DNA of 64,000 nucleotides from Candidatus Latescibacterota bacterium (GTDB taxonomy: Bacteria > Latescibacterota > UBA2968), in the NCBI GenBank assembly GCA_965208125.1, contig OZ242320.1, positions 3,616,001 to 3,680,000 of the forward strand, given 5' to 3'. Under the pieces are notes generated by a model, which worked only from the letters and a program-made list of their open reading frames with translations, searched no databases and had not been told where the DNA came from. This document shows, piece after piece, positions 1 through 50,327 of this stretch. The translations under genes were made by a program, and so were the position numbers. Numbering within the stretch: the first letter of the stretch is position 1; the number at the start of each line of letters is the position of its first letter.

Positions 1-149
1 TACATCCCGATCAAATAGGTGCGGGAAAGATGGCAAAAGCTATTGCCGAAATGCTCGAACGTTCTGTGTCCGAACACGATCTATCCATAGATGGTGCCGA
101 GCAAACGCGAAAGTTCATAGAGCAGCAGTTAGCAAAACAGAAAAAATGA
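1..149 (+). CDS. 3' end of a probable glycosyltransferase (COG4671/GT28-C-like), truncated by window edge
   Basis: Frame from base 3 reads HPDQIGAGKMAKAIAEMLERSVSEHDLSIDGAEQTRKFIEQQLAKQKK* (TGA 147-149). The 'HPDQ...DGAEQT' ending resembles GT-B C-termini. Stops 8 nt before the next ATG. Not in the ORF track. Confidence 0.55.
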   Translation, partial: HPDQIGAGKMAKAIAEMLERSVSEHDLSIDGAEQTRKFIEQQLAKQKK

Positions 150-157
150 GGTAAAAA

Positions 158-1561
158 ATGAAAATTTACGTGCCACACCCATATTGCGACCGCGAGAAAG
201 TGATAGCGTCAAATAGTGGGGCGTCTCTATCAGGTTTTAACCATGTGCTGGCGTTATCGAAGTATTGCGAGGTGTATATGCCAGCGTCTGAAGCGGTGGA
301 TTATGGTCCGAATTTGCACGGTATTCGACTCGCATTTGAGACGATTGATTCGTCTCGCCAGTGGTTTGCGCGGCAGGGATTTGACGGGGTGCTGATGTTT
401 GAACCCAAAGCAGATGACCTGGCATTTTTTCGCCATGTGTGTCCCGCACCCATTGTGATTCGGCTGTCGTGTTCTTTTGGGCGCAATCGCGATTTTGTCG
501 ATAAAGTGCTTCAATGTTATTCGCTGTTGCGGCCTTATGATGCCTTGTCGCCCAAGTCGGCGTATGTCGCTGACGAAGTGGGCAAGTTGGTGTTTGACAA
601 GTCGTATTTGCGTCCGATTACCAATGGGGTAGATGCCGAGGTGTTCAAACCGATGGATAAGTTGCAAGCGCGCAAAGAGGTCGTGGATAAGACAGGTGAT
701 CAACGCTTTTTGGAGATGCCTGTGGTGGGTTTTTGCGGGCGGTTTGAACCGGGCAAGGGCGCGTATTCATTTTTGCGAATGGCCGATCTGAATCCCAATG
801 TGTTGTTTACAGTGATTGGCAAGCAGTTCGCTCCCGTGACGCATCCTCCCAATGTGATCTTTTTGGGCGCGCAACCCTATACGGATATGCCGCTGTATTA
901 CAATATGCTGGATGTGTTGTGCGCGTTGTCGGTGTATTCGTATGAGTCGTGTCCCTCAACTGTGATAGAGGGCATGGCGTGTGGTCTTCCGGTTGTGGCG
1001 ACAAATTTTGCGGGTGCGCCAGAGTTGTTGGGCAGTTGTGGGCAGTTGATAGAGATTGAGCGATTTGAAGATGAGCCATTGAATGTGACGGGTTATATCG
1101 ATCCTGAGGTGATTTCAGATGCTGTGCGCGGTTTGTTGAATAGCAAAACGGAGCGGGAGAAATTGGGTGAGTGTGCTCGCAAACGCGCACTCGAATTTTC
1201 CTGGGATTGTATGGCACAGCAGCACCTGGCATTGTTTGAAGATCTGCTGACCAAACGCGATACACCCGCGTGTCCGATTCCACTAACCGTGAGTTTTACA
1301 CAGGGTTGTGATATATCTGGTGTGCCGAAGAGTGTGTCTAAGGGGTTTAACTATTTGGGCAGCAGGCAAGGCCCATTGCCGCGTATCCCGTTTTTGGGGC
1401 AGGATATGTCCCTTATTGAGGGTCTGGGCCTTCACTTGATGCAACATTTACATCCAAACGAAGTCGAAGCCGTCCTGTTGGGATTATGTGAAACGCGCGC
1501 TACAGCCTACAAAACGCTTCGCAAAATCCGACGCTTCAGCGATATGCTCACTGCTCCCTGA
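158..1561 (+). CDS. GT4 (GT-B) glycosyltransferase with ~100-aa C-terminal extension
   Basis: Motifs ITNGVD, VGFCGRFEPGKG, E-x7-E (ESCPSTVIEGMACGLPVVAT) and FSWD. GAGG RBS upstream. Confidence 0.9.
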   Translation: MKIYVPHPYCDREKVIASNSGASLSGFNHVLALSKYCEVYMPASEAVDYGPNLHGIRLAFETIDSSRQWFARQGFDGVLMFEPKADDLAFFRHVCPAPIVIRLSCSFGRNRDFVDKVLQCYSLLRPYDALSPKSAYVADEVGKLVFDKSYLRPITNGVDAEVFKPMDKLQARKEVVDKTGDQRFLEMPVVGFCGRFEPGKGAYSFLRMADLNPNVLFTVIGKQFAPVTHPPNVIFLGAQPYTDMPLYYNMLDVLCALSVYSYESCPSTVIEGMACGLPVVATNFAGAPELLGSCGQLIEIERFEDEPLNVTGYIDPEVISDAVRGLLNSKTEREKLGECARKRALEFSWDCMAQQHLALFEDLLTKRDTPACPIPLTVSFTQGCDISGVPKSVSKGFNYLGSRQGPLPRIPFLGQDMSLIEGLGLHLMQHLHPNEVEAVLLGLCETRATAYKTLRKIRRFSDMLTAP

Positions 1562-2077
1562 TGGATAGAAGGATACAGCTTGCGCTGAGGTAGTGAAGAA
1601 AGGAGGTGATAGAGATGAAGAGACGAGTTATATCAAATCCCGAGCAATCGGTCGCTGATGTGACCCCTCTACCGATTAAAACGAGTGATCTGGACGCGTA
1701 TCAAATTGCTCATATATCTGGTGGATCTATATTGGATGTCATCGGTGATTATATCAGTGAGGAATTGGGTATAGACGTACCAGATTTAGATGTTCATCCA
1801 TGGTCCTGGTAAGTTTTTGGTAGAGTGAATATTGGGCTTCCTGATAGTAATCGCGCTACACCTGCAAAAATCGACACTTCAGCGACACGCTCACGGCTTC
1901 TTGCGTCCCCAACAAGGGATGCTATTTGCACTGCGCTGAGGTGGTAAAGAAAGGAGGTGAGGAAGAATGGCGAGACGAATCATATCAAATCCTGAGCAAT
2001 CGGCTTCCTGTGTGACCGATCTACCGCTTGAAACGACGGATCTGAACGTGCATAAATTTTCTCAGGTCTCTGGTGGA
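1521..2077 (+). repeat. Degenerate direct repeat (1521-1725 vs 1864-2077): GT 3' end + RBS + leader of precursors 1/2
   Basis: gcaaaatccgacgcttcagcgatatgctcactgct vs gcaaaaatcgacacttcagcgacacgctcacggct; tgcgctgaggtagtgaagaaaggaggtga vs tgcgctgaggtggtaaagaaaggaggtga; the leader codons are then similar. Confidence 0.85.
1615..1812 (+). CDS. RiPP precursor peptide 1 (37-aa GG leader + 28-aa acidic core ending HPWSW)
   Basis: AGGAGGT RBS at 1601-1607, ATG 1615. Leader has L(-12), I(-7), I(-4), GG. Paralogous to the next ORF and upstream of a C39 transporter. Confidence 0.85.
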   Translation: MKRRVISNPEQSVADVTPLPIKTSDLDAYQIAHISGGSILDVIGDYISEELGIDVPDLDVHPWSW

Positions 2078-2182
2078 TGTTACCCGACCCCGGAGGAAGA
2101 GTTCAGTGAAGAATATGACCCAACACTGGAAGGTATTTTGGATGATGTTGACCCCTTTTACCCCTGGTCCTGGCCAATGTAA
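1967..2182 (+). CDS. RiPP precursor peptide 2 (37-aa GG leader + 34-aa acidic core ending YPWSWPM)
   Basis: AGGAGGT RBS. Leader RRIISNPEQS...LNVHKFSQVSGG aligns without gaps to precursor 1. Confidence 0.85.
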   Translation: MARRIISNPEQSASCVTDLPLETTDLNVHKFSQVSGGCYPTPEEEFSEEYDPTLEGILDDVDPFYPWSWPM

Positions 2183-2328
2183 TTCAGAACCCGGTAAGTA
2201 TTTGGCTCAGTGGAACCTGTTGGTCATTTGTTGTAAATCTCTAATTTTTATTTTTCAAGTACTAAAAAACCAGCTTTATTCTACAAAGTACTTGATAAAT
2301 TTTACAATTCATTTATTCGGAGGATATC

Positions 2329-2637
2329 ATGTCTGCTGTCGCATTAAATAATCGCGTGACTTCAGATTCAGACGCTATTTTTGCGTCTTGCACATCACTG
2401 CCCATCCAGCAAACAACGCTCAATTGTGAAAAAATGGCAGGTATTGATGGTTTATGCCTGTGGGGGACAGTTTTTGGTGAAGTGCACGAGCTTATTTCTG
2501 AATGGGAAGATCAGTTGGAAGATGTTAATACTGTAGCTTCGCTATATTATTATGGCGGTGTTGTTGTTTTGTCTGCCGACCCTCCTGAGCCTGGGGTTGA
2601 GTATCCCCTAATAATACCTAATAAGAAGCTGTTTTGA
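2329..2637 (+). CDS. RiPP precursor peptide 3 (42-aa leader ending GL + 60-aa core)
   Basis: GGAGG RBS. Leader is closely similar to precursor 4 and aligns ungapped to precursors 1/2 (T-x-LPI...L-N...A-x-I-x-G). Confidence 0.8.
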   Translation: MSAVALNNRVTSDSDAIFASCTSLPIQQTTLNCEKMAGIDGLCLWGTVFGEVHELISEWEDQLEDVNTVASLYYYGGVVVLSADPPEPGVEYPLIIPNKKLF

Positions 2638-2747
2638 AATTATTGGGACCTATCCCTTTACTCCTATCCGCGTCAATTTAAGGGGTAAATCACTGTCACT
2701 CCTGCACATGTGGTATCACAATTCCTTTCATTTACCCGGAGGCTATC

Positions 2748-3011
2748 ATGTCCCCTATTGCATCAAATAATCGCTTGACTACGTATTCAGATGCCGCTTT
2801 CGCCTCTTGCACGGCACTATCTATCCATCAAACAACGCTCGACATTGAAGAAATGGCAGGTATTAATGGATTGTGTCATTCTGAGCAAGAAGAAGAAGAG
2901 AATTCTGCAATCCCGACACCACCCAGTCAAGCGGTCATTATGTATTACATATTGAAAGCTAAGAGGCGAATGGAAACCCCCGTGATTTACTGTTCCTATT
3001 CTATTTGGTAA
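2748..3011 (+). CDS. RiPP precursor peptide 4 (42-aa leader ending GL + 45-aa core)
   Basis: GGAGG RBS. Leader NNRLTTYSDAAFASCTALSIHQTTLDIEEMAGINGL is conserved with precursor 3; the core is unrelated. Confidence 0.8.
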   Translation: MSPIASNNRLTTYSDAAFASCTALSIHQTTLDIEEMAGINGLCHSEQEEEENSAIPTPPSQAVIMYYILKAKRRMETPVIYCSYSIW

Positions 3012-3032
3012 GGTGCATCAACCCGTTATTTC

Positions 3033-3064
3033 TGTGGCTACGCCGTGGGCATGGCGTAGCCACA
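3033..3064 (+). promoter_or_regulatory. Stem-loop between precursor array and transporter (attenuator or mRNA stabiliser)
   Basis: Perfect 12-bp stem tgtggctacgcc/ggcgtagccaca with no U-tract. Confidence 0.6.
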
Positions 3065-3083
3065 CCACATAATGGATTGAAAA

Positions 3084-6000
3084 ATGAATCTTTCCCACTT
3101 TTTCTTAAAAAACTCGGTGTGGACGCAGTCTGTTCATTTTCCCTTTGGAGGTGTTGTTTTTCAACAGGGGCAAGCGGGTGAGGCGTTTTATATTGTGGAG
3201 TCTGGACGGTTGCGGGTGATTAAGCAGGATGCGAATGGTACTTCGACAACTGTGGGATATTTGTATGCGGGCGATCATTTTGGTGAAGGGGCACTGTTGA
3301 CCAGGCAGGGGCATCGGGCAACGGTGCGAGCGGTTGAGGATGCGGAGGTGTTGCAGGTGCCCAAGGATGAGTTTTTTAAGGCTGTGAGAAAAAGTTCTGA
3401 TGTACGAGCCTACCTCGAAGAGCAGGTTGCCTGTATTGCATATCGGGATTTTACGCGATTTTTGAAAGGAGATGTTCCGGGCGAGGCGATGCGGGTGTTG
3501 TTCGCGCGGTTGAAGCGCGAGGCAGCTGAGGAGGGTGTGACCGTTGTTGAGCGAGGTCAGTTGGGTCAGCGATTTTATTTGCTTGGTAGCGGTCAGTTGG
3601 AGGCTGTGTTAGAAAATGGTGATACGGTGATTCTACGCCCGGGTGATTATTTTGGCGATGGTAGAGATGATGAAACGATCATTCGCAGTCGGCGTGATGG
3701 TGTACTCTTTTATATAGATAAAAGCAATTTTAATAAGCTAAAAGCTATGATGCCGGGATTCGAGGAGGCGTTGGATAAAGGCTGCATATTGCGTGGAGAA
3801 GAGGGATCAAGAGGGGAATTGCGACCTGTGCTTGAGCCGCCTGTTGTGCGATCTGTTACCCAAAAAGATACAGAGCCTAATACAGCATCCAATGTGGTTA
3901 ATATCAGAATAGACGGTGAAAAACCACAAGTACCTACATTGTTGCGTTTTCCGTTTTTGAAGCAACACGATCAATCAGATTGCGGCGCGGCGTGTTTAGG
4001 CATGATCTGTAAGTATTACAAGATGCCTATTGGATTAAACAGGTTGCGCGATATGTCCAATGTGTCGCGGTATGGCACGTCAATGGCGGCATTGGCCGAG
4101 GCTGCGGAGACACTGGGCTTTGTCACGCGCGGTGTGCGAACGGGTTATGAAGCTCTGATGCGAACAGAATTGCCAGCTATTCTCCACTGGGAAGGCAATC
4201 ATTTTGTGGTCCTGTATCAGATGAATAAAAAGGAAGTGAACATAGCGGATCCAGGTGTGGGTATTCGCAAGCTGTCGCGGGCAGAGTTTGAAAAGGGTTG
4301 GACAAACATGGCGCTTTTGTTGGAATACACGGATCAGGTGGCAGAGAATGAACCCTCTCGGTCTTCTTTTAAGCGGTTTTTTCCATTAATCAGACCCTAT
4401 ACAAGCATTTTGATTGAGGTATTGTTGGCGTCTTTGGTACTCAGTTTGTTTGGTCTGGCATCACCCATTTTTATGCAGACGATTGTCGATCAGGTCTTAG
4501 TGCATCACGATGAGGATTTATTGAATTTGATGCTGGTGGGTATGGTCGTTGTCGCATTGTTCCAGATGGGTACATCGACGTTGCGTGTCTATTTAATCGG
4601 GTATGTGAGTGCGCGATTGAGCATTGCGATGTTGTCGCGTTTTTATCGGCATTTATTGGCACTATCCATGCGGTTTTTTGCCCTCAGGCGCACGGGCGAT
4701 TTGACCACGCGGTTTCGGGAGAATGCAACGATTCAGCGTTTGTTGACGGATACGACGGTTTCTGCGGTTCTGGATTTTATCATGCTTTTTGTCTATCTGG
4801 GTCTGATGTTTTATTACAATGCGGAACTGACGCTGGTCATGTTGATTTTTGTGCCGCTATCTGTGGGTCTCACGCTGATTTACACACCCATTTTGAAGTC
4901 TTTTAGCCAGCGTGCTTTTCTGGCGCGTGCCGAACAATCCTCGGTTTTAATTGATGCGCTGCACGGTATTGATGTGGTTAAAGCCGAGGCGGTGGAGCGC
5001 GCGACACGGTGGCATTGGGAAGGTAAGTTCACAAGGGAAATTCAGATTGGCTTTCAACGGTTAAAAATGCAGATGTTGTTTGGGGGGATGGGAAGGGTAA
5101 TTAATTTGCTGAGCAGTACGGTGATTTTGTGGTATGGTGCCTCATTAGTGATTGCGGGGGACCTGTCGGTTGGGCAGTTGATGGCGTTTAATGCGCTGAT
5201 TGGCAATGTGATGGGTCCCATTATGGGCTTGATCGGAATATGGCCTCAGGTGCAAGAAGCGCGTATTGCCCTGGATCGGCTGAATGATGTGTATGACACG
5301 CAGATGGAAGATGCGCGGCAGCAAGGTCAGGGTTTGATCTTAAAGCATTTGGTAGGGCGCGTGGTTTTTGATGCGGTGTTTTTTAGATATGGTGTTGGTT
5401 CTGATGAACCTTATGTGTTGAATAATATAGACCTGACGCTTGAGCCAGGTCAAAAGGTTGCAGTTGTGGGACGCAGTGGTGCGGGTAAGACGACGTTGGT
5501 CAAGCTGTTGCCCCGTTTGTTTGATCCGTCAGAAGGTCGGGTGATGATAGATGGTATGGATGTGCGAGATCTGGATCCCCATTGGTTACGGCGACAGGTG
5601 GGTATGGTGATGCAGGAGCCGTTTTTGTTTTCTGGCACGATTGCAGAAAATATCGCTATAGGTCAGTCAGATGCGGATATGGATCGCATTTTGGAAGTGG
5701 CGAAACTATCGTGTGTCCACGATTTCGTAAGTGATATGCCTTTGGGGTATGAGACAAAGGTGGGTGAGCAGGGCGTGGGGCTGTCTGGCGGACAGCGACA
5801 GCGGATTGCCATTGCCCGAGCACTTTACCATGATCCGAAAATTTTGATTTTTGACGAGGCGACCAATGCGTTGGATACAGATTCAGAACAGGCGATACAG
5901 GCGAATTTAGATCTGTTTTTGGATGATCGCACGGCGTTGATTATCGCGCATCGGTTGAGTACGGTGCGCGATGCGGATGCGATTGTGGTCTTAGATAAGG

Positions 6001-6092
6001 GTCATATTGTAGAGATGGGCACGCACGATGAGTTGATGGTGCAACAGGGTTTGTATTATCACATGTGTAGTCAACAGTTGCAGGTGGTGTGA
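3084..6092 (+). CDS. Peptidase-containing ABC transporter (2x cNMP-binding + C39 peptidase + TMD + NBD)
   Basis: cNMP motifs (FYIVESG...GDHFGEGALL; FYLLGSG...GDYFG). C39 motifs QHDQSDCGAAC, HWEGNHFVV, IADP. Walker A GRSGAGKT, signature LSGGQRQR, Walker B ILIFDEAT. Confidence 0.95.
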   Translation: MNLSHFFLKNSVWTQSVHFPFGGVVFQQGQAGEAFYIVESGRLRVIKQDANGTSTTVGYLYAGDHFGEGALLTRQGHRATVRAVEDAEVLQVPKDEFFKAVRKSSDVRAYLEEQVACIAYRDFTRFLKGDVPGEAMRVLFARLKREAAEEGVTVVERGQLGQRFYLLGSGQLEAVLENGDTVILRPGDYFGDGRDDETIIRSRRDGVLFYIDKSNFNKLKAMMPGFEEALDKGCILRGEEGSRGELRPVLEPPVVRSVTQKDTEPNTASNVVNIRIDGEKPQVPTLLRFPFLKQHDQSDCGAACLGMICKYYKMPIGLNRLRDMSNVSRYGTSMAALAEAAETLGFVTRGVRTGYEALMRTELPAILHWEGNHFVVLYQMNKKEVNIADPGVGIRKLSRAEFEKGWTNMALLLEYTDQVAENEPSRSSFKRFFPLIRPYTSILIEVLLASLVLSLFGLASPIFMQTIVDQVLVHHDEDLLNLMLVGMVVVALFQMGTSTLRVYLIGYVSARLSIAMLSRFYRHLLALSMRFFALRRTGDLTTRFRENATIQRLLTDTTVSAVLDFIMLFVYLGLMFYYNAELTLVMLIFVPLSVGLTLIYTPILKSFSQRAFLARAEQSSVLIDALHGIDVVKAEAVERATRWHWEGKFTREIQIGFQRLKMQMLFGGMGRVINLLSSTVILWYGASLVIAGDLSVGQLMAFNALIGNVMGPIMGLIGIWPQVQEARIALDRLNDVYDTQMEDARQQGQGLILKHLVGRVVFDAVFFRYGVGSDEPYVLNNIDLTLEPGQKVAVVGRSGAGKTTLVKLLPRLFDPSEGRVMIDGMDVRDLDPHWLRRQVGMVMQEPFLFSGTIAENIAIGQSDADMDRILEVAKLSCVHDFVSDMPLGYETKVGEQGVGLSGGQRQRIAIARALYHDPKILIFDEATNALDTDSEQAIQANLDLFLDDRTALIIAHRLSTVRDADAIVVLDKGHIVEMGTHDELMVQQGLYYHMCSQQLQVV

Positions 6093-7475
6093 ATGGCAGA
6101 ATCGCTTTTAGAGACACCAGCAGAGACAATGTCTCCAGGTATAATCCAGGGACAAGATGACGCGGCAGAAGAGGTGCATGCGTTTATGGGATCCTTGCGG
6201 CCCTTTTGGGGTCGTGCATTGCTCTATATTGTCCTGCTATTTGTAATTATTGCCATTATCTGGGCATGGTGGGGCAAGGTGGATGTGGTGGCATCAGCGC
6301 CTTTTCGGCTGGTGCCCCTCGGACAGGTGAAGACGATGCAGGCGCGGCGAGGTGGTGAGATTGAGTTGATTGGTGTGAAAGAGGGAGATCAAGTCGAGAA
6401 AGGGCAGGTATTGTTCAAGCTCAAATCGTGGGAGACCTGGGGAGAGTTGCGGGAATGGGAACAGGCAAAGATGGCTTTTCAAAAGGCAGAGTATGATCTC
6501 AAGACGGTGTTGTCTCAAAGGGCGAGGTTAAATCGAGAGACGATAGAGGCATTGGAGCAACGTCTTTCTGTTTTGCAGCAGTTTATGGAGGCACATCAGG
6601 ATGCGTTGGAAGATTATCAAAGCGATGTGGCCGGTGTTGAGGGATCGAAAAGCAAAGTATCTGACGTGGGGTTGCAAGCGCAGATCGGGTTTCGTCAGGC
6701 TGAAATTGATCATTTGAAGGGGGAGTTTTTGCAGCAAAAGACGCTGTTTGAGCGCGAGTTGATCAGCCGGGCGGATATGAATCGCGCGCGCGTGCAGTAT
6801 TTAAGTGCTCTGTCTGCGCTTCCCTCGCGTATGTCGGAGATATACAAGAATGAAATGGCTGTACAGGATCTCAAGCGTCAAATCACAGAGGCGCGCATTG
6901 CACATGGTCGCGAGACTTCGCAGATGCAATACGCTTATGAGACTGCACAATTGCGATTGGAACAGGCGCGCAAACGCATTGATCGGACCCTCGAAGCCGA
7001 GTCGGATTTGATTCTGGCACCTGAGTCGGGCGTTGTAACACAGGTGATAGTGAATGCGATTGGACAGGTGATCAACAAGGGGCAGGCTCTCATTGCACTG
7101 GCACCTGCTTCAGCACCGATGGTTGCAGAGGTGAGGGTTTTAAATAAAGATGTGGGCTTGCTCAAACTCGGGCAATTGGTCAAGCTGAAATACGATGCGT
7201 ATGCCTTTCAGGATTTTGGTATCAAACGCGGGTGGCTTACATCCATCTCGCCCGATGCGGTGATCGATGAACGTATTGGACCGATATTTAAGTGCGTTGT
7301 TGAATTGGAAGAAAATACCATGCGCGTGAAAGGATATGACAAACCTCTGATGTTTGGTATGAAGGGCACGGCGGAGATGATGACAGATCGGCAATCGGTT
7401 TTGCTGATATTACTTTCTCCTTTGCGACAGCTTTACGAGTCGGCGAGGTACGATGTTGAGGAGGGTGCGTTGTGA
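6093..7475 (+). CDS. HlyD-family membrane fusion protein (type I secretion)
   Basis: N-terminal TM helix, GVKEGDQVEKGQVL hairpin, long coiled coil, APESGVV, VKLKYDAY, GMKGTAE. Starts directly after the transporter stop. Confidence 0.93.
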   Translation: MAESLLETPAETMSPGIIQGQDDAAEEVHAFMGSLRPFWGRALLYIVLLFVIIAIIWAWWGKVDVVASAPFRLVPLGQVKTMQARRGGEIELIGVKEGDQVEKGQVLFKLKSWETWGELREWEQAKMAFQKAEYDLKTVLSQRARLNRETIEALEQRLSVLQQFMEAHQDALEDYQSDVAGVEGSKSKVSDVGLQAQIGFRQAEIDHLKGEFLQQKTLFERELISRADMNRARVQYLSALSALPSRMSEIYKNEMAVQDLKRQITEARIAHGRETSQMQYAYETAQLRLEQARKRIDRTLEAESDLILAPESGVVTQVIVNAIGQVINKGQALIALAPASAPMVAEVRVLNKDVGLLKLGQLVKLKYDAYAFQDFGIKRGWLTSISPDAVIDERIGPIFKCVVELEENTMRVKGYDKPLMFGMKGTAEMMTDRQSVLLILLSPLRQLYESARYDVEEGAL

Positions 7476-8251
7476 TGGTGGAGGATGCTATGTTGATTCA
7501 GGTCAATAGTATCGCAGTATCATTGCACCATATTGTGCGACAATTAGGAGTTGCCGATAATCTACGTTTTTTTGATGAATTTGCGCGTAGAGAATTGATC
7601 CGGCAACTCGCGCTACGTGAGGGTGTTTGTGCAGCGCGTGAAGATATTCAGCGTAAGGTGAATGAATGGCGGTATCAACATCGCCTCGAACGGGTGGAAG
7701 ATACAGAGGCTTATCTTGCAAAGCGGGGTATTACGCTTCAGGATGTGGCAGAAGATGCCGAGGTGAGGCGGCTGGAGTTTTTGCTGTCTGAGAAGATTGC
7801 CGAGGGACAGGTCGAACCCTATTTTGCACAACACACATTGGAATTTGATGAGGCGGAGATTTGCTGGATTTTTCACACGGATGAGGGTGTGATCGACGAG
7901 GTTGATTTGCAGATACGAGAAGATGGTGCAGATTTTTACGCGATGGCGCGTCGGTTTTCTCAAGATGCACACACGCGGCCAGGTAGTGGCTTTTTGGGTC
8001 GTGTGAGGCGCAAGCAGTTGCCAAAGGGGATTGCTGCACGCGTGTTTGCCGCTTCACCGGGTGAAATTTTGGGTCCAGAAAAAGTATCGAAAGGCTTTGC
8101 GCTGTATTTGTTGCAGGAACGCTATCCGGCAATGCTGGACGAGCGGATTAAAAAAGAAATTCGCAAGCACCTGTTTAATCAGTGGTTGCAACGAGAGATG
8201 CAGCGGGCAGATATACGATATCCGATTTGGCAGGCGAAAGTCTCTAAATAG
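7472..8251 (+). CDS. PpiC/parvulin-like peptidyl-prolyl isomerase-related peptide maturation protein
   Basis: DFYAMARRFSQD...SGFLGRVRRKQLP...GEILGP rotamase-like motif. GTGA overlap with HlyD. Confidence 0.85.
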   Translation: MMVEDAMLIQVNSIAVSLHHIVRQLGVADNLRFFDEFARRELIRQLALREGVCAAREDIQRKVNEWRYQHRLERVEDTEAYLAKRGITLQDVAEDAEVRRLEFLLSEKIAEGQVEPYFAQHTLEFDEAEICWIFHTDEGVIDEVDLQIREDGADFYAMARRFSQDAHTRPGSGFLGRVRRKQLPKGIAARVFAASPGEILGPEKVSKGFALYLLQERYPAMLDERIKKEIRKHLFNQWLQREMQRADIRYPIWQAKVSK

Positions 8252-8264
8252 AAGGAGAATATGG

Positions 8265-9344
8265 GTGAAAATTATTCTTGTTGCGGGTGCGCGGCCCAAT
8301 TTTATGAAAGTTGCCCCGCTGTGGAATAGACTGATCAAGATGCCCGATGTGTTTGATCCGATTTTGGTGCATACGGGACAACACTATGACGATTTTATGT
8401 CCGAGATTTTTTTTCGAGACTTAAATCTTCCCAGGCCACATTATGAATTAAATGTGGGGTCGGGCAGTCACGCGTACCAGACAGCGCAGATCATGATGGG
8501 ATTTGAGGATGTTTTACTTCAAGAAAGGCCGGATTGGGTTCTTGTCGTTGGCGATGTAAATTCCACTCTGGCATGTGCGATGGATGCAGCAAAATTGCAA
8601 ATCCCCGTTGGACACATAGAGGCAGGGTTGAGAAGCAGGGATAGGTCAATGCCCGAAGAGATCAATCGGCTCGTTGTGGATGCCATATCCGATCTTTTGT
8701 TTGCACCTTCGATGCAGGCGTGTGAAAATCTGAGGCGCGAAGGCATAGAAGAGAGCCGCATTCATTTTGTGGGCAATGTGATGATAGATTCCCTTGTGTT
8801 GCTATCTCCCAAAGCCGATGAATCCCGCATTCTGGATATACACGGTTTATCAGTTCAAGAGTACGTTTTTCTGACTCTCCATCGAGCCTCAAATGTCGAT
8901 TGCCCAGATACGTTGGCTGGCATTGTATCCGCGTTGCAAACCTTCAAATGTCCAATCGCCTGGCCTTTACATCCGAGAACCCGCAATCGCCTATCCCAAT
9001 TTGGTTTTTTGCAAAGGCTTGAGATGATGGACAATATCAAACTTATGGATCCGGTGGGCTATCTCGATTCTTTAAAACTTCAGAAGAATGCAAAATGTGT
9101 GATGACAGATTCTGGAGGATTGCAAGAAGAGACGACGGCTTTGGGTGTGCCGTGTTTGACGCTTAGAGAGCATACAGAACGCCCAGAGACTATAGATATT
9201 GGGACGAATACACTTGTGGGTGTTTGTCCCGAACGCATTGTTGCAGAGGCTGAATCTGTTTTGAAAGGGCACTATAAATCCGGTCGCTTGCCCGAGTTGT
9301 GGGATGGCAATACCGCAGAGCGAATTGTTGCTTTGCTTTGTTGA
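8265..9344 (+). CDS. wecB: UDP-N-acetylglucosamine 2-epimerase (non-hydrolysing)
   Basis: Motifs GARPNFMK, HTGQHYD, GDVNST, HIEAGLRS, PEEINR, TDSGGLQEE, TERPET. GTG 8265 with AGGAG RBS. Confidence 0.95.
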   Translation: MKIILVAGARPNFMKVAPLWNRLIKMPDVFDPILVHTGQHYDDFMSEIFFRDLNLPRPHYELNVGSGSHAYQTAQIMMGFEDVLLQERPDWVLVVGDVNSTLACAMDAAKLQIPVGHIEAGLRSRDRSMPEEINRLVVDAISDLLFAPSMQACENLRREGIEESRIHFVGNVMIDSLVLLSPKADESRILDIHGLSVQEYVFLTLHRASNVDCPDTLAGIVSALQTFKCPIAWPLHPRTRNRLSQFGFLQRLEMMDNIKLMDPVGYLDSLKLQKNAKCVMTDSGGLQEETTALGVPCLTLREHTERPETIDIGTNTLVGVCPERIVAEAESVLKGHYKSGRLPELWDGNTAERIVALLC

Positions 9345-9440
9345 CGTATGGCGTACGCCAAGTTCTCAATTGTGTCAGAAATGTAATTTCTCTATAATTG
9401 TATGAAGAGGAAGTATATTAAAAAAAGAGGCTGTAACAGG

Positions 9441-9854
9441 ATGGCAGAAAAAACAGACGAAGAAAGGGTGTCTATTTGGAGCACAGGAGATAAAGAAAGA
9501 ATATGGTTTATATCCTTAGCCTCGGCATTCTTTTATACTTCACTTATACTGATTCTTTGGCACAAAATTATTGAAGTTGATTACAATGCGATTGTTGAAG
9601 TAATCAATGTCATAGGATCTGCAAGTCTTGCTGCCATAGCATTAGCATTCTTCATTATAGAGGGGGTAAATCTTATGATTATTCCAGTTGAAAAATATCG
9701 CCAAAAACAACGACAGAAAGGTCGACAGGAGGGTCGGCGAGAAGAGCGGCAAAAGATTTTTAAAGCAATAGAGTTGGCCTGTCCGGAGGTTGATATAGAG
9801 GCCATCCGTGCTGCATTAGAAGACCAGAATAGGAGTGCAGAAAACAGTAAATGA
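9441..9854 (+). CDS. Hypothetical membrane protein with charged GRQEGRREE tail
   Basis: Two hydrophobic segments followed by RQKQRQKGRQEGRREERQ. AT-rich coding sequence. Start could be 9402 or 9441. Confidence 0.65.
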   Translation: MAEKTDEERVSIWSTGDKERIWFISLASAFFYTSLILILWHKIIEVDYNAIVEVINVIGSASLAAIALAFFIIEGVNLMIIPVEKYRQKQRQKGRQEGRREERQKIFKAIELACPEVDIEAIRAALEDQNRSAENSK

Positions 9855-9967: not shown

Positions 9968-10819
9968 TCAAGGCATCACAGCTTCTTTCCCCTGATATTC
10001 TCGGATCCAGCCTTTTAATGGCACGTCCTCTTCTGTTGGGGATGTGTAGCCGTGAATGCCCGATGGAGAATGCCGGCACATTTGCTTTCGGATTGGACTT
10101 AGTTCATCCCAGAAATTTTCCACATTGCATTCGCCGCGGGCTTGAAGCCAGCGATAAGCGTAGCCGTAGAAGAGCACCTTGCGGGGTTGTGTCCAGTAAT
10201 TTGCACTTGCCGAATGCCACAATCGACGGTCAAAAATAACGGCTGTACCCCGGGGGGCGAGGATGGGTACGGCGCGTTTTACCATCTGATTGCGATTTCC
10301 GTTCGGCCAATTCATTTTATTTTTTAACTGGCTTCCCGGAATGACGTGAAAATTGCCGCGTCCCGGTTCACTTGTATCCGATAGGAAGTAGGCCACTTTG
10401 ACCGATAAGCGAGGCCTCGGGTTTGTCTCCATCTCTTGATTCACGCGCCCGGTATCTTGATGCCAGCCGATCCCCAAACCGCGTTTGCTATCTGGTGGTT
10501 CGGGAGGTGTCACGTTCAGGTGTGCCAGATAGATTTGAATATTCCATCCCAAAATTCCCCAAACTTTTGGGAATGTGGTGTAGTGATCTATCAGGTCAAT
10601 AAACACTTGATCCCGCCCCAGAAAGTCGCGTTCGTGAACACGCTTATGGGGTTCGATTTTTTGCTTTTCGCGTTCTTCGGCATTGACGCGATCAACTGCT
10701 TTGGTCAGTTGTCTTCTCTTGGCGTCGCTCAGCGCGTTTTCAATGATGAGATAACCCCGATCGTCAAATTCGAGCCGTTCGTCTTCTGTCAGGCAATGGT
10801 GTAGCCAGCGTCTGTTCAT
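9968..10819 (-). CDS. Phytanoyl-CoA dioxygenase (PhyH) family Fe/2OG oxygenase
   Basis: FDDRGYLIIENAL, WHQD, VIPGSQ, IFDRRLWHS motifs. Confidence 0.9.
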   Translation of the reverse strand: MNRRWLHHCLTEDERLEFDDRGYLIIENALSDAKRRQLTKAVDRVNAEEREKQKIEPHKRVHERDFLGRDQVFIDLIDHYTTFPKVWGILGWNIQIYLAHLNVTPPEPPDSKRGLGIGWHQDTGRVNQEMETNPRPRLSVKVAYFLSDTSEPGRGNFHVIPGSQLKNKMNWPNGNRNQMVKRAVPILAPRGTAVIFDRRLWHSASANYWTQPRKVLFYGYAYRWLQARGECNVENFWDELSPIRKQMCRHSPSGIHGYTSPTEEDVPLKGWIREYQGKEAVMP

Positions 10820-16846: not shown

Positions 16847-17626
16847 TCATTCAAAGAGCGATGGGAAGTGACGAAGGGGTTCTGCTGGCTCTCTGAAGAG
16901 TATCTGCTGACGCGGTGTCAGTTCTGTGTTGGTTGGCGGTTGTACGCGATTGGGTCTCCAGGCTGTATGCGCTACGCAATATTTGTAGAGGAGAGAGCGG
17001 CGTTCGTGCTTGCCGTACCAGGCCGATGTCCCGTGTGTTAGAGCTTCGGTAAATAAAATAGCGGAGCCAGCGGGTGCCTGTGGAATGATTATAAGGGGCG
17101 ATTTTTCAGGGGCATCGAATATCTTTTGGGGCAATCGGTAGTTGCTTTTGTGACTGCCGGGAATGCAGCAGAATCCCCCGTGGTCTGGCCCTGCGTCTGT
17201 GAGGCTCCACGCTACAACCAGGAATCCGTCGGTTATCTCGTGTTTGGGAAAATTAAAGTATTTGCCCGGCATTGATCCCGAAATGGGTGACATGGCACCG
17301 TAGTCGGCGTGCAGACGCCCTCTTCCCATGCCCGCTTTCATGTACATGCCATAGAGGCGGTCAAGACGAAAGCAGTCGCCCAATCGGAAGCGCAATATGG
17401 GCATAATTTGAGGGTGGTCGAGGAGTTCGCAAAAGGGTTTTCCCCATTGCAGAAAGCCCGGCCCGTCAGGTGCGCTGCCAAATCGCTGCGTTTTGCCCGG
17501 TGGGGGCAGTTTTTGTTGGTCAAATAGTTCATTGAGTGTTGCTACTTCGTCTGCGTTTAAGACATTTTCAACGACGAGGTAGCCCTGCAAGTCGAGCAAA
17601 TACTGTTGTATTTCAAGGTCTTCCAT
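16847..17626 (-). CDS. PhyH family Fe/2OG oxygenase
   Basis: DLQGYLVV, LHAD, CIPGSHKSN, FTEALTHG. AGGAG RBS before ATG 17626. Confidence 0.88.
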   Translation of the reverse strand: MEDLEIQQYLLDLQGYLVVENVLNADEVATLNELFDQQKLPPPGKTQRFGSAPDGPGFLQWGKPFCELLDHPQIMPILRFRLGDCFRLDRLYGMYMKAGMGRGRLHADYGAMSPISGSMPGKYFNFPKHEITDGFLVVAWSLTDAGPDHGGFCCIPGSHKSNYRLPQKIFDAPEKSPLIIIPQAPAGSAILFTEALTHGTSAWYGKHERRSLLYKYCVAHTAWRPNRVQPPTNTELTPRQQILFREPAEPLRHFPSLFE

Positions 17627-17871
17627 AATGTTCTCCTGTTTTTTTAGATGATGTGGTGTATTAAAATTCCGGTTGATCCTCAGCGTGTCTTGGAATATCA
17701 TTTTGATTGGACTATATTAGATTTCGACTTTGGACGCAAGGAGAAAGACCAGCAAATGGTCAGTTGCAAAATCAGGTAGGTGGTATTATATTTTTTCGTG
17801 CCTTATTATTTTATGTAAAGAAACGGTGTGTATCACGCCGTTTCTTTTTTTCCGAATAACAGGAGTGAGCT

Positions 17872-38477: not shown

Positions 38478-38677
38478 CTTTCATGGGAACGAAGAGGTTC
38501 TGCCAGTTGTTTAATGCCGTAAATACTGATTCTTAGAGATATGCAACTTTCTTTTGATTCACGCATTTAAAAAAAGTAGTAAATTCCAATATATAACGAG
38601 CTTTGGGAGTATGTCAGCACTGTTTTACAAGGATAAGGATATTTCTCAAAGTTGATTACGTCGCAAAGGAGCTAAAC

Positions 38678-41600
38678 ATGGCTCGGTGTTGTCTTTTCGT
38701 GCGAAGCGCCATATTCGTCCTCATTTTGGGGGTTTCAATCTCTGCTTTTGGGCAAGAATATTTTGGCAAAAACAAGGTCAATTACAGCCAGTATGTGTGG
38801 CATTATATCGACAGTGAACACTTCACGGTTTATTTTGACAAGGGTTCACTCGGGCTGGCCGAGTTTGTTGCCAAAGAAGCCGAAAGATCACTGGTACACA
38901 TTGAGAAAACGCTGAAATATACGATGAAGGATCGCTATCCCATTGTTATTTACAATTCTCACAATGGGTTTTCGGTATCGAATATTATCAGCGGGGAACA
39001 GTCTGAGTTTACGGGCGGATATACCGAGTTTGCACAGGGGCGCGTGGTGATTCCCTTTACGGGATCTTATGGGGATTTGCAGCACGTCATCCATCACGAA
39101 CTCGTTCACGCTGTTACAATTGAGTTGTGGACCGGTGGCGGCTGGTTGGGGTCTCTGGTTTCTCAAACATCGACGTTACCTCCGCTGTGGATTGCCGAGG
39201 GTATTGCCGAGTACGTATCTCGATATGGCTGGCATAAGGAGCACGATAATTTTATGCGCGATGCAACCATTACCGGATATGTGCCGACTATCGAAATGAT
39301 GTCCATGAGTTATTTTGCCTATCCCGGTGGCAATTCAGTTTTTTACATGATAGAACAGGAATACGGCAAGGACAAAGTGGCATCTTTTATTTCTTCTTTC
39401 CGCACGGCCAAAAATCCCGATAAAGCACTCAAAGCATCTCTGGGATTTGGGATGAAAGAATTGGAGGAAAAATATCAATTGTGGCTCAAGCGGCAATACT
39501 GGAATGAGATCAATTTGCGCCATACGCCCAAAGAGATGGCAACAAATTTGACAGAGCACGAAGATAGGCGTTCGGCGTATAATTTAGCTGCTGCGTTATC
39601 TCCACAAGGCGACAAGGTCGCGTATTTGACCGACCGAAATGGTACTTTTGATATTTATTTGATGTCGGCGATTGATGGCAAAGACCTGGGGCGTTTGGTC
39701 GAGGGACAGAAGTCGTCTGCTTTTGAGTCAATGTTTGTTTTACGGCCCGGATTTACCTGGTCACCGGATGGTCGGCATATTGCATTCGCTGCCAAATCGA
39801 ATAACAAAAATACCCTGTATATTCTCGAAGTTAAAAATAAACGAATTCGCAAGCGATTTAAGTTTGACCTCGATGGCTTGTTTGAACCCACCTGGTCACC
39901 CGATGGAGAAAAAATTGCCGTCGCGGGTATTAAAGATGGCTGGTCTGATATCTATGTGGTCGATGTGAACGACGAGTCGCTTACGCGGCTTACAAATGAT
40001 CCCTATGACGAGCGGCATCTGGATTGGTCGCCCGATGGCACATGGATCGCCATGAGTTCTGATCGTCCCGATACCCATTTGAAATTCAGCGGTGGGAAGG
40101 ATTTTGCTTTCGGTCAATACGATATTTTTTTAATGCGTACAGATGGCTCTGAAATGCGCCGGATTGTCGCGTCTGAAGACGCCGAAGATTCACATCCCGT
40201 GTGGGGTGCCGATAGCAAACACATTGCCTTTGTTTCTGACCGTACGGGTGTGGGCAATATTTATATTGCAAATGTTGACAGTACTCAGGAGATATATCCC
40301 ATTACCAATTTATTGTCGGGGGCGCAATATCTCGATTGGTCAGCCGATGGCAAAAAGATCGTGTTCAATGCTTTTCACAAGGGTGCCCTGGATATATTTG
40401 TGATGCGCGACCCATTCGCGCAGCGAAAAGAAATGGCGGATTTGCCGCGTACTCGATTTGTCAAGCGCCTCGCCGGTGAAGATGAAAAGATGTTTGTTGA
40501 GTTACAAAAAGAAAAGTATGCAAGCCGCAAGATTGCCAAAGTAGAAGTCGATAGCACCGCGATCGATTCGACAGCAAAAAAAACAGAGAAGAAAGTGGCG
40601 CAGTGGATCTCCGATCAGGAAGCACTTGCAGCGGCAGAGAGCGCGCCTACAGATAGTACGGCTGAGATCGATACCACGCATCCGGTCGCAGGTAGTCCAG
40701 AAATGGCCGATACTGGCAAACAAGGGGTAAAAAATTGGGGTGAAAAGGAATTTCAGGTTAAGAAGTACAAGCTGAAATTCAAGCCTGAACTGTTTGGTGC
40801 ACAGGCGGGATTTGATACGTTCTACGGCGTGAGTAGCTCTATCGTATTGTCCATGAGTGATGTGATGGGTGATCACCGCGCCACATTGGTGACGAGTTTA
40901 AATTTTTCACTCAAAGACAGCGACTTTCTGCTTGCGTATGCCTATTTGAAGAATCGTACAAATTACGGTGCGCAGCTTTTTCACACGCGGTTCTTCTTCT
41001 TTGATAATACAGGTCGTCTAACTGCGGATCGATATTACGGGCTTGCCGGAATGCTCGAGCGACCATTTAATCGGTTTGCCCGTTTAGAACTCAGTACGCG
41101 TTTTGTATCTGTTGATCGCGAAGAGGTTTTTACTGATATCAACAATTATTTGTATCAGCCGGGCTTTCGCGGCGTTGGGCGGTTTTCGAGCCAATTGATC
41201 GACCGTCGTCGGGCGGCTATCGGCGAAGTGGCTCTGGTGGGCGATAGCGCGCTGTACAGTTTGTTTGGCGCGGTAGATGGGCATCGCTATCGGTTGAATT
41301 TTGAAGGTTCTGGTGTGGGCATGAAATTTGCCACATTTGCGCTGGATTATCGCAAATATATGCGGTTATTAAACGAATACACCTTTGCCATCCGAATGTC
41401 GGGCGGGACGAGTTATGGCCCCAACAGCACCGTATTTTTCTTAGGCGGTGTGAACAATCCGGTCAATCCAACATTTTCCACCATTGCCAGTGTTGACCAG
41501 AGTCGCGTGTTTTTCTCTTCTTACGTCTGGCCCCTGCGCGGCGCGAGATTGCTCGAAATGGCGGGTGATTCTTATGTGCTGGCCAATGTCTCATTTCGGT

Positions 41601-41944
41601 TCCCACTCATTCGGCAATTGGCCATGGGCTGGCCCCTGCCGTTTTTCTTCCAGAATGTACAGGGCGAGTTGTTCTTCGACATCGGGGGGGCATTTAACCG
41701 CGCCGATTGGAGAGATGGATGGGTGTCCCGAGATGGGGGTTTTGAACTCAATGTACCGCAGCATTTTCGCAGCGGATCGAGACATGGACTACCAAAGCCC
41801 CAAATGGCTGCCGGGTACGGGTTTGGCGTGCGGGTAAATTTGGGCTATTTCCTGTTCCGATACGATTTGGCCTGGCCTACAGATCTCGCGCAAACATATC
41901 ATCCATACCAGTATTTTTCAATTGATTTCACGGGTTTGTTCTAA
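38678..41944 (+). CDS. Outer-membrane protein: zincin metallopeptidase + TolB/PD40 propeller + BamA-like barrel
   Basis: Signal peptide, FGKNKV, HELVH...WIAEGIAEY, repeated WSPDG, C-terminal GYGFGVRVNLGYFLFRYDLAWP...F. Confidence 0.8.
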   Translation: MARCCLFVRSAIFVLILGVSISAFGQEYFGKNKVNYSQYVWHYIDSEHFTVYFDKGSLGLAEFVAKEAERSLVHIEKTLKYTMKDRYPIVIYNSHNGFSVSNIISGEQSEFTGGYTEFAQGRVVIPFTGSYGDLQHVIHHELVHAVTIELWTGGGWLGSLVSQTSTLPPLWIAEGIAEYVSRYGWHKEHDNFMRDATITGYVPTIEMMSMSYFAYPGGNSVFYMIEQEYGKDKVASFISSFRTAKNPDKALKASLGFGMKELEEKYQLWLKRQYWNEINLRHTPKEMATNLTEHEDRRSAYNLAAALSPQGDKVAYLTDRNGTFDIYLMSAIDGKDLGRLVEGQKSSAFESMFVLRPGFTWSPDGRHIAFAAKSNNKNTLYILEVKNKRIRKRFKFDLDGLFEPTWSPDGEKIAVAGIKDGWSDIYVVDVNDESLTRLTNDPYDERHLDWSPDGTWIAMSSDRPDTHLKFSGGKDFAFGQYDIFLMRTDGSEMRRIVASEDAEDSHPVWGADSKHIAFVSDRTGVGNIYIANVDSTQEIYPITNLLSGAQYLDWSADGKKIVFNAFHKGALDIFVMRDPFAQRKEMADLPRTRFVKRLAGEDEKMFVELQKEKYASRKIAKVEVDSTAIDSTAKKTEKKVAQWISDQEALAAAESAPTDSTAEIDTTHPVAGSPEMADTGKQGVKNWGEKEFQVKKYKLKFKPELFGAQAGFDTFYGVSSSIVLSMSDVMGDHRATLVTSLNFSLKDSDFLLAYAYLKNRTNYGAQLFHTRFFFFDNTGRLTADRYYGLAGMLERPFNRFARLELSTRFVSVDREEVFTDINNYLYQPGFRGVGRFSSQLIDRRRAAIGEVALVGDSALYSLFGAVDGHRYRLNFEGSGVGMKFATFALDYRKYMRLLNEYTFAIRMSGGTSYGPNSTVFFLGGVNNPVNPTFSTIASVDQSRVFFSSYVWPLRGARLLEMAGDSYVLANVSFRFPLIRQLAMGWPLPFFFQNVQGELFFDIGGAFNRADWRDGWVSRDGGFELNVPQHFRSGSRHGLPKPQMAAGYGFGVRVNLGYFLFRYDLAWPTDLAQTYHPYQYFSIDFTGLF

Positions 41945-50147: not shown

Positions 50148-50278
50148 GATATACTTCCAAAATGCGGGTATGTCAATACTAAAATCACGAGATTACTAAA
50201 GATAGCTTAAGTAATCGAAAAACTAACTGTGTGCGTCTCGGAAATTGTCTTGACATCTCAAAAGTTATTTGTTAGCAT
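50148..50278. promoter_or_regulatory. Divergent sigma70-type promoters
   Basis: Minus strand: TTGACA(50176-50171)-17-TATATC. Plus strand: TTGACA(50250-50255)-17-TAGCAT. Confidence 0.6.
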
Positions 50279-50327
50279 AAAAATTCAATTTTTTAAAATG
50301 TTCAGCATTTTAACAGGAGCCTCCTCG

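Follow-up and report, generated by a model that had tools for sequence, protein, structure and literature searches.

Several described kinds of bacterial peptide cluster encode a peptidase-containing ATP-binding cassette (ABC) transporter (PCAT), and some also encode glycosyltransferases (GTs). Class II bacteriocin loci combine double-glycine leaders, PCAT export, and glycine-zipper cores with immunity proteins of the CPBP/Abi type. The transferases that make glycocins are SunS-like enzymes of family GT2 with a GT-A fold. In the available text of PMC12457901, glycocin cores contain two or three nested disulfides, and genes for thiol-disulfide oxidoreductases accompany them. According to the accessible part of PMC3140520, a long-type transporter with CAP_ED domains, together with HlyD and a rotamase ("SurA"), characterizes the bacteriocin cluster groups I, II, and VI of cyanobacteria. 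In the rosaritide (mir) cluster, as far as the available text of PMC13097080 describes it, the graspetide synthetase requires a chaperone-type partner, MirC (TIGR04500), and a PCAT is present. In the cacaoidin (lanthidin) cluster, a retaining GT4 enzyme, Cao24, is proposed to glycosylate a ribosomal peptide (PMC8068269, from the part of the text at hand). Here we compare with these systems an operon at positions 1 to 9344 of a 64,000-nucleotide (nt) stretch of DNA from Candidatus Latescibacterota bacterium (assembly GCA_965208125.1, contig OZ242320.1, positions 3,616,001 to 3,680,000 of the forward strand). We call the whole stretch the window.

The operon is a real, well-delimited, lineage-specific module: its export set is known, its leader family has no match in Pfam or NCBIfam, and its pair of GTs is fixed at the head of the operon. 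It consists of genes for two cytoplasmic enzymes of the GT-B fold, then one to four precursor genes, and then the known export set. We lean, with some reserve, toward reading it as a bacteriocin-like operon, or one like those for peptides made by the ribosome and modified after translation (RiPPs), in which GTs recruited by the leaders glycosylate the peptides, which are then exported for competition. We found no description of this type of locus in open-access papers and bioRxiv, and the excerpts of the sponge literature on Latescibacterota that we consulted mention only generic antiSMASH classes ("RiPP-like" or bacteriocin).

A conserved module in Latescibacterota

The listing of open reading frames (ORFs) gives ten ORFs at positions 1 to 9344, all on the forward strand. 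An initial annotation, made from the DNA letters, had read them as a GT tail, a GT4, four precursors, a PCAT, HlyD, a PpiC-like protein, and wecB, with the last four genes spaced by 0, -4, and 13 nt. The ORF list and domain scans confirm the gene assignments, and the ORF coordinates confirm the spacing. By the same coordinates, the tail lies 8 nt before the GT4 gene, and 53 nt separate GT4 from the first precursor gene.

A scan based on GT4, with one genome per species, yielded 33 loci. The record titles of 32 of them name Latescibacterota or Latescibacteria, and the remaining title says only "bacterium." Features were counted by tblastn with the window's proteins, by a leader profile, and by reading the remaining loci, which we cite by number (such as L031). 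A precursor gene follows GT4 directly, on the same strand, in 32 of the 33 loci, for a total of 62 precursors in these loci plus the window. Downstream, 29 loci have the PCAT gene and 25 have HlyD; in 24, the PpiC-like gene comes after HlyD. Most of the missing HlyD and PpiC-like genes are due to the ends of the fetched DNA. As for the four loci without a PCAT, L023 and L028 stop short of where it would be, a long array of precursor and immunity-like genes in L021 has no PCAT within 10 kb, and L014 is a lone GT4.

The module also keeps its composition as its surroundings and its sequences change. The 23 loci whose flanks are complete represent at least 13 distinct upstream contexts. One chromosome holds up to four loci; the GT4s of the same genome are 51-94% identical, and each copy has its own GTs and precursors. 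The adjacency of GT4 and precursor is kept down to 52% GT4 identity, and the pairwise identities of GT4 and PCAT show a correlation across 325 pairs from 26 sources (r = 0.89; 0 of 999 in a Mantel test). The initial annotation had named a lack of synteny between the GTs and the precursor and PCAT genes in other genomes as a ground for refuting it, which is not what we found. Because synteny is conserved in nearly all loci, in so many contexts, and among the diverged copies that a genome may hold, up to four of them, the link between the GTs, the precursors, and the exporter is real.

Two individual cases should be recorded. L025 and L029, which lie on the same chromosome (OZ244847.1), have PCATs that are 96% identical and GT4s that are 55% identical, while all other same-genome pairs diverge in step; this suggests a recent exchange of export genes between copies. 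At L014:10001-11404, there is a GT4 copy that is 90% identical to the window's and has no precursor, upstream GT, or transporter nearby.

The precursors share a leader family and vary in their cores

Each of the four small ORFs has a Shine-Dalgarno-like GGAGG 6-10 nt ahead of its ATG. A profile built from the four identified 58 proteins at E <= 0.01 among 119 candidates, and in 21 retrieved family sequences, near-identical leaders are joined to unrelated, hypervariable cores. Because of these upstream sites and this family, the small ORFs are real genes and not chance frames. They have the conserved leader and variable core that mark RiPP precursors.

All four precursor genes are on the forward strand and match the leader profile. 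Precursor A1 (positions 1615-1812, with GGAGG before the ATG at 1615 and an alternative GTG start at 1606; profile match, 9e-16) has a leader of about 37 amino acids (aa) that ends in a canonical double glycine, followed by an acidic core of 28 aa, which has Ser as its first residue and PWSW at its end and contains seven Asp or Glu and no Lys or Arg; its close homologs are P0007 and P0012. Precursor A2 (1967-2182; 5.7e-17) has a leader of the A1 type; its acidic core is 34 aa long, with Cys in first place and PWSWPM at the end. Its homologs include P0001 and P0002, and L031:11800-12030 is 90% identical to it. Precursor B1 (2329-2637; 1.8e-33) joins a strongly conserved type-B leader of about 42 aa, ending in GIDG-L, to a 60-aa core; looking up B1 in the ESM Atlas gave no usable match. 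Precursor B2 (2748-3011; 7.2e-33) has a type-B leader ending in GING-L and a 45-aa core with two Cys, and it is 76% identical over its full length to L031:12579-12842. The four cores contain 0, 1, 1, and 2 Cys, respectively.

Sixty distinct leaders of all types align as one superfamily with two conserved boxes. The N-terminal box is approximately R-[IV]-[TS]-S...F-x-x-C-x-x-L-P, with R in 98%, L in 98%, and P in 90% of the 60 leaders. The C-terminal box is of the double-glycine export type (L in 93% and G in 98%). Leaders of types A and C end in S-G-G and have hydrophobic residues at -4, -7, and -12; in type-B leaders, the aligned -2 residue is Gly, but the -1 residue is Leu, Val, or Gln. When 13 type-B sequences are aligned, all 17 invariant columns are within residues 1-41, 11 of them lie over 15 residues ahead of the cut site, and the cores cannot be aligned. 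From these alignments, the conserved stretch of the leader looks longer than export and cleavage by a C39 peptidase alone would need. None of the window's four leaders matches a family in Pfam or NCBIfam, and they are neither NHLP nor Nif11 leaders, in agreement with the initial annotation, which did not recognize this class of system.

Across the family, the cores are of several kinds: short acidic cores with Trp-rich ends, glycine-zipper cores, and cores with Cys-rich C-termini. Some have weak matches, below the cut-off, to the Bacteriocin_IIc or Gly-zipper models (for instance, 9.6e-5 for P0028). The 28 acidic cores of types A and C begin with Cys (23 cores), Tyr (4), or Ser (1), and an initial Cys is usually the sole one. 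Known peptide glycosyltransferases modify residues of these kinds. Lys and Arg are absent from 26 of the 28, and the net charge is strongly negative. An acidic gene (type C or A) is followed by a type-B gene in 13 loci (C-B or A-B), and the order in the window is A-A-B-B. This order could reflect a two-component product or a pair of signal and effector.

Two glycosyltransferases at the head of the operon

The GT4-family enzyme (positions 158-1561, forward strand; 467 aa) matches Glycos_transf_1 of Pfam at residues 186-343 (68 bits). Residues 1-185 and 365-467 have no match in Pfam; they correspond to the acceptor-side N-terminal domain and to a family-specific C-terminal domain of about 100 aa. 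Across 16 members of the family, neither the E-x7-E pair (E263/E271) nor R195/K200 varies. An AF2 model of the protein has a predicted local distance difference test score (pLDDT) of 87.8 and a predicted template modeling score (pTM) of 0.86. When the model was compared to the PDB with Foldseek, the best matches were MshA, GlgM, sucrose-phosphate synthase, and BshA, with E values down to 3e-17. The protein has no hydrophobic segment. It has each mark of a retaining enzyme that we looked for (the GT-B fold, the Glycos_transf_1 domain, the E-x7-E motif, and the R/K phosphate-binding pair). Judging by sequence and model, it looks like a soluble GT-B enzyme of the retaining GT4 type, catalytically complete in its sequence.

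The family of this GT4 is sharply bounded: 45 clusters match at E <= 1e-102, and the next match, to a generic GT4, is at 9e-10. Within the family, 40 of the 45 clusters are 466-468 aa long, and identities are 47-94%. Apart from the lone copy in L014, the family occurs only with this peptide system. We also compared both GTs to TIGR04157, which, going by its NCBIfam name, we take to be the GT of a Bacteroidota system with radical-SAM enzymes and GG peptides. The GT4 scores 28.7 bits and the large upstream GT scores 54.2 bits, both below the cut-off of 400 bits. In the full model, the C-terminal domain (residues 370-467) is arranged as strand-strand-strand-helix-helix-helix; modeled alone, it has a pLDDT of 66, with the hairpin below 50. 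A profile of this domain searched against 1.84 billion representative proteins gave six matches, which are members of the same family, fragments, and two repeat-like proteins. In a 3921-aa protein, P0253, 19 stretches match the hairpin part of the domain (profile positions 5-46; E = 1e-25).

Only the last 48 codons of the upstream GT gene are within the window (positions 3-149, forward strand, with an open 5' end); the body of the gene lies to the left. By tblastn, this 48-aa tail is found just upstream of GT4 in 28 of the 33 loci. In relatives, it is the last part of a GT-B protein, the C-terminal half of which (about 415 aa) matches Glyco_tran_28_C and, weakly, MurG and macrolide GTs, so the initial annotation was right to call it a probable GT tail. 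The GT28-like half has no membrane segment, and it had no matches at E <= 0.01 among PDB sequences. In 14 loci, the half is fused in one ORF to a complete N-terminal GT4 domain (841-873 aa in total); in 13 loci, the half stands alone (about 415 aa); in three loci (L024, L025, and L027), it is followed by a separate GT4-like ORF; and in the other three, the form cannot be told or the gene is absent.

The initial annotation also expected more tailoring genes to the left of the window. In relatives, just one gene bears this out, the GT whose tail we see; a response regulator with REC and AraC domains sometimes precedes it. The regulator was identified upstream of the GT by a domain scan in L001 and L029 and by tblastn in eight further loci, or 10 in all. 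The precursor set of L031 is the one most closely related to that of the window, and in this locus the genes still further to the left resemble housekeeping genes.

wecB is an accessory gene

The last gene of the operon (positions 8265-9344, forward strand) starts with a GTG at 8265, within a longer ORF that is listed from 8031. It encodes a non-hydrolyzing UDP-GlcNAc 2-epimerase: the protein matches the equivalog model TIGR00236 over its full length with 336.7 bits, above the cut-off of 210.15, and is a bona fide WecB. The initial annotation had treated wecB, and with it a dedicated nucleotide sugar, as a core part of the system. However, wecB is present in just 6 of the 33 loci (L001, L003, L009, L011, L017, and L031), where it lies 17-71 nt after the PpiC-like gene each time, and the same chromosomal site is found without wecB in other genomes. 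It is a dispensable, accessory member of the operon.

The presence of wecB goes together with the form of the upstream GT. All six loci with wecB have the two-domain form, and wecB is missing from all 11 loci in which the half stands alone. (If relatedness is ignored, p = 0.001 by Fisher's test on [[6,2],[0,11]]; the test omits L024, L025, and L027, which have the separate GT4-like ORF.) L009 differs from its close sister L010 in the two traits at once, and L031 has the fusion and wecB in an upstream context that it shares with nine loci that have neither. These patterns are suggestive of a role for wecB in supplying the extra GT domain with UDP-ManNAc.

The export set is known from cyanobacteria

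The transporter (positions 3084-6092, forward strand) is a long-type PCAT of 1002 aa. Its Pfam domains are two cNMP_binding stretches, Peptidase_C39 (137.7 bits), ABC_membrane, and ABC_tran, and it matches TIGR01193 (bacteriocin_ABC) at 530.2 bits, above the cut-off of 523.85. The catalytic Cys300 and His373, the Walker A and B motifs, and LSGGQ are all intact. Next comes a type I periplasmic adaptor of the HlyD family (6093-7475, forward strand), which matches TIGR01843 at 216.5 bits (cut-off, 208.65) and has a single hydrophobic segment near its N terminus, at residues 35-69. The PpiC-like gene (7472-8251, forward strand) encodes a PrsA/SurA-like protein with a parvulin (PpiC) domain. The Rotamase match covers residues 141-214 (48.6 bits), the matching PDB sequences are parvulin, PrsA, and SurA, and there is no hydrophobic segment. 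Its score against TIGR04500 is 86.2 bits, below the cut-off of 180, and covers just positions 87-336 of the 340 in the profile. By its sequence, it is a cytoplasmic, PrsA/SurA-like protein with a chaperone-type region and a parvulin domain.

Relatives of the PpiC-like protein are encoded on cyanobacterial plasmids (31 records; the best has 31% identity across 95% of the query). The gene order on a Tolypothrix plasmid is peptidase-domain ABC transporter, HlyD, and peptidylprolyl isomerase; there is no GT among the plasmid's 20 annotated features and no obvious precursor among 17 ORFs around this trio (L035, 2600-5000). On a Leptolyngbya plasmid, the isomerase gene lies beside those for two peptidase-domain ABC transporters, also without a GT. 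Since the gene accompanies those for PCAT and HlyD in places that have no GT as well, the PpiC-like protein is more likely to be tied to export or to holding the peptide than to glycosylation. The initial annotation had presented the cyclic-nucleotide-binding PCAT, HlyD, and the PpiC-like protein as part of a new system, but this set is already established from cyanobacterial groups I, II, and VI (PMC3140520, in its accessible part) and is found without a GT on cyanobacterial plasmids.

Immunity-like genes and an RNA hairpin

In 11 sister loci, the precursor genes are separated from the PCAT gene by genes for Rce1-like/CPBP membrane proteins. Proteins of the CPBP/Abi type confer immunity to bacteriocins, and their genes here fit a polymorphic arsenal of toxins and immunity proteins. 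Among the 13 ORFs of the window that were scanned with Pfam, there is no CPBP gene. In L021 (11329-17594), there are three tandem cassettes, each with a type-A precursor, an ORF of 121-166 aa of no known family, and a Rce1-like/CPBP protein. Six distant loci (L024, L025, and L027-L030) have a single precursor of 136-156 aa after GT4, with the same leader box and a core rich in Gly, Ser, and Thr. In these six, TPR, zinc-ribbon-like, and DUF3267-like membrane proteins follow instead of CPBP genes. L027 also has two large ORFs that belong to none of the families tested.

Between the last precursor and the transporter gene, the RNA is predicted to form a hairpin (positions 3018-3080, forward strand). 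Its minimum free energy is -35.1 kcal/mol (z = -5.74), and none of 200 shuffled sequences folds as well. The same sequence is in the same place in L031, and no run of T follows it. It may be an attenuator or an element that stabilizes the mRNA and so sets the ratio of precursor to transporter. Other bacteriocin operons show differential expression, and by analogy the hairpin would be consistent with it.

Do the glycosyltransferases modify the peptides?

We infer that the peptides are glycosylated, and with which nucleotide sugar, from the arrangement described above. In favor of it are the conserved linkage and tight packing of the genes, a soluble and catalytically complete GT4 with a divergent acceptor-side domain, a leader box that C39 cleavage would not need, and the regular choice of first core residue; MirC and, as a proposal, the cacaoidin GT4 offer precedents. 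The N-terminal box of the leader would recruit the GTs, which would attach one, two, or three sugars to the core. For the short acidic peptides, the candidate site is the first core residue, whose side chain is always nucleophilic. Where the upstream GT has the extra GT4 domain, wecB would provide UDP-ManNAc. The SurA-like protein may keep the peptides, or an enzyme, competent; the C39 domain would cleave behind the glycine motif, and the ABC transporter and HlyD would export the product, with the cNMP domains (and the REC-AraC regulator in some loci) gating the process. The products would act in bacterial competition, as proposed because many sister loci have CPBP-type immunity-like genes beside the precursors. 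A more specific version, which we hold tentatively and regard as doubtful in its entirety, is that this is a new class of RiPP confined so far to Latescibacterota. Its private leader box would recruit two or three soluble GT-B enzymes: the MurG-like or macrolide-GT-like enzyme, the GT4 with its unique C-terminal domain, and optionally a GT4 of the exopolysaccharide type that wecB feeds with UDP-ManNAc. Together, these would assemble a short glycan, both on larger toxin cores and on acidic peptides that end in Trp, where the first core residue (Cys, Ser, or Tyr) would carry it, and the SurA-like chaperone would then pass the glycopeptides to the cNMP-gated PCAT. If so, these would be bacteriocins of sponge-type symbionts that bear di- or trisaccharides, made by leader-guided S- or O-glycosylation with GT-B enzymes.

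A number of observations weigh against glycosylation of the peptides, and some of them favor a different account, in which the peptides are exported unmodified, in the style of class II bacteriocins or of cyanobacterial group I, while the GTs alter a glycan or lipid of the cell's own envelope as self-protection or make a co-regulated surface glycan. The present sequence and model data include no sugar on a peptide and no contact between a GT and a leader. The export trio works without GTs in cyanobacteria, and some cores resemble unmodified glycine-zipper bacteriocins. The added N-terminal domain of the large GT is nearest to a GT of exopolysaccharide systems (TIGR04063, 325.5 bits, below the cut-off of 442) and wecB is a classic envelope-glycan gene; both look, by sequence, like envelope-glycan genes. 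As the scanned ORFs of the window include no CPBP gene, the producer would need some other protection. As to the GT4, its structural neighbors act on small molecules or glycans and not on peptides, and we found no support for a leader-binding fold like the RiPP recognition element (RRE) in its C-terminal domain: Foldseek gave no PDB matches at E <= 0.001, the domain profile gave no matches to PDB sequences at E <= 10, and the domain occurs in no other protein architecture. All 33 loci were found through GT4, so any leaders of this family that occur away from GTs are outside this sample. L014, the sole exception to the synteny, has unrelated genes on both sides. For wecB and the extra domain, a test that takes the tree into account gives, on supported branches, three independent pairs, of which two change the same way, none the opposite way, and one not at all; with so few pairs, the link does not reach significance (p = 0.5), and L026 and L033 have the fusion without wecB. 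Finally, the cut site of type-B leaders is uncertain because their aligned -1 position lacks Gly. This is less troubling because the C39 domain of a glycocin transporter is documented to cleave at a site other than Gly-Gly, namely Gly-Lys (PMC12457901, available text). Despite these points, we consider unmodified export to be unlikely, if a serious competitor. Neither the GT4 nor the GT28-like half has a membrane segment; each diverged copy in a genome keeps its own GT pair beside its own precursors, which is hard to reconcile with a shared envelope function; and the N-terminal box of the leader is conserved beyond the needs of C39 cleavage.

Whether or not the GTs act on the peptides, the acidic peptides of types A and C might be secreted signals for quorum sensing or induction that are sensed via the upstream regulator, with type B and the other larger cores as the effectors. 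The position of the acidic genes ahead of type B, the strongly negative charge of their cores, the REC-AraC regulator of 10 loci, and the cNMP sensor domains of the PCAT all speak for such a division of labor. However, a scan of a sample of ORFs in the loci examined found no histidine kinase, and the regulator is absent from many loci. In addition, the type-A genes of L021 are in cassettes with CPBP immunity-like genes, which fits toxins, and acidic precursors are common in cyanobacterial clusters of a similar type (PMC3140520, accessible part). We therefore think it improbable that the acidic peptides are signals. It is far less probable still that the GT genes and wecB are chance neighbors of a peptide-export operon and functionally unconnected to it. 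Bacterial genomes contain many GT4 and wecB genes, and wecB is dispensable, being missing from the fetched DNA of 27 of the 33 loci. However, for the two GTs, chance is close to refuted by an adjacency that holds across contexts and down to 52% GT4 identity and by the correlated divergence of GT4 and PCAT.

Neighboring genes

Directly 3' of wecB is an ORF of 150 aa (positions 9402-9854, forward strand) with two or three hydrophobic segments and no match in Pfam or NCBIfam. A homolog (88% identity) lies directly after the PpiC-like gene in L004, a locus without wecB. The ORF could encode an accessory membrane protein or an immunity-type protein of the operon, or it could be a mere neighbor. There are genes for PhyH-family dioxygenases at 9968-10819 and 16847-17701, both on the reverse strand. 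The former is a neighbor rather than a tailoring gene because it is part of a conserved flank (PhyH, membrane protein, Ddl) that directly follows the PpiC-like gene in loci without wecB.

Domain scans of the rest of the 64-kb window show ordinary chromosomal housekeeping genes, such as those for Ddl and IspDF. Two large proteins are unrelated to the operon: one of 1650 aa (50229-55181, forward strand) with Peptidase_M28 and an FtsX-like permease end, and one of 1113 aa (38603-41944, forward strand) with PD40 propeller repeats, a Peptidase_MA-like region, and Omp85. Promoter-like sites are no more frequent than in shuffled sequence (15 versus 15.6 expected), and we give no weight to the promoter scan.

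Comparison with described systems

Glycosylation of the peptides by these GTs would be a second enzymatic solution in the biosynthesis of ribosomal glycopeptides, structurally unrelated to the first (GT-B rather than GT-A), and the leaders would be a new family for genome mining. The loci would amount to a diversifying arsenal in an uncultured phylum, with up to four copies per genome, swapped cores, and immunity-like cassettes, and the co-varying extra GT domain and wecB would exemplify the natural, modular extension of a glycan on a peptide. If instead the GTs do something else, then the operon is a clean case of a cyanobacterial-type exporter (cNMP-PCAT, HlyD, and SurA) outside the cyanobacteria, and is ordinary in kind.

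The operon shares features with the glycocin pathways (sublancin, glycocin F, and thermoglycocin; PMC12457901, available text): a leader peptide, a GT gene beside the precursor, a PCAT, and Cys or Ser residues, which bear the sugars in glycocins. The enzymes differ, in that the GTs here match Glycos_transf_1 and Glyco_tran_28_C and have the GT-B fold, rather than the GT type of glycocins; none of the 13 window ORFs scanned matches Glycos_transf_2. The cores differ as well: those of the window have 0, 1, 1, and 2 Cys, as against the nested disulfides of glycocins, and the Pfam scan found no thioredoxin-like gene at positions 1-9344. The initial annotation had proposed GT-B enzymes, not of the glycocin type, acting on cores unlike those of glycocins, and the Pfam and Foldseek matches and the low Cys counts agree with it on both the enzymes and the cores.

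The cacaoidin cluster is similar in that it has both GT2 and GT4 enzymes, with several GTs cooperating, and genes for sugar nucleotides. By the part of PMC8068269 at hand, it differs in being an actinobacterial lanthipeptide cluster with many other modifications and without the trio of PCAT, HlyD, and SurA, and the role of Cao24 is only proposed. The mir cluster also encodes a cytoplasmic SurA-like protein with a RiPP precursor and a PCAT. However, in comparison with the available description of MirC (PMC13097080), the protein here lacks the N-terminal, weakly RRE-like domain and falls below the TIGR04500 cut-off, and there is no ATP-grasp enzyme here; its gene, both here and in cyanobacteria, travels with PCAT and HlyD. 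Compared to class II bacteriocin loci, the operon has leaders of roughly double the length, with an extra conserved box, and it has GTs, while the copy in the window lacks CPBP.

The closest likeness is to the cyanobacterial clusters of groups I and II (PMC3140520, accessible part). These also have a long-type C39 ABC transporter with N-terminal cyclic-nucleotide-binding (CAP_ED) domains, an HlyD protein, and a rotamase (SurA), and they have arrays of double-glycine precursors with conserved leaders and very variable, often acidic cores, with several clusters per genome. The operon has the long-type PCAT, the HlyD and SurA-like rotamase, and, with types A and C, the adjacent double-glycine precursors that define such export clusters. 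It differs in belonging to another phylum, in having another leader family, and in the CPBP immunity-like genes of many loci. Above all, two GT-B enzymes are fixed at the head of the operon, whereas the word "glycosyltransferase" occurs 0 times in the main text of PMC3140520. By analogy, then, the locus resembles a cyanobacterial group II cluster, in which the export trio is joined by extra enzymes, and it would resemble a glycocin pathway too if the peptides are indeed glycosylated.

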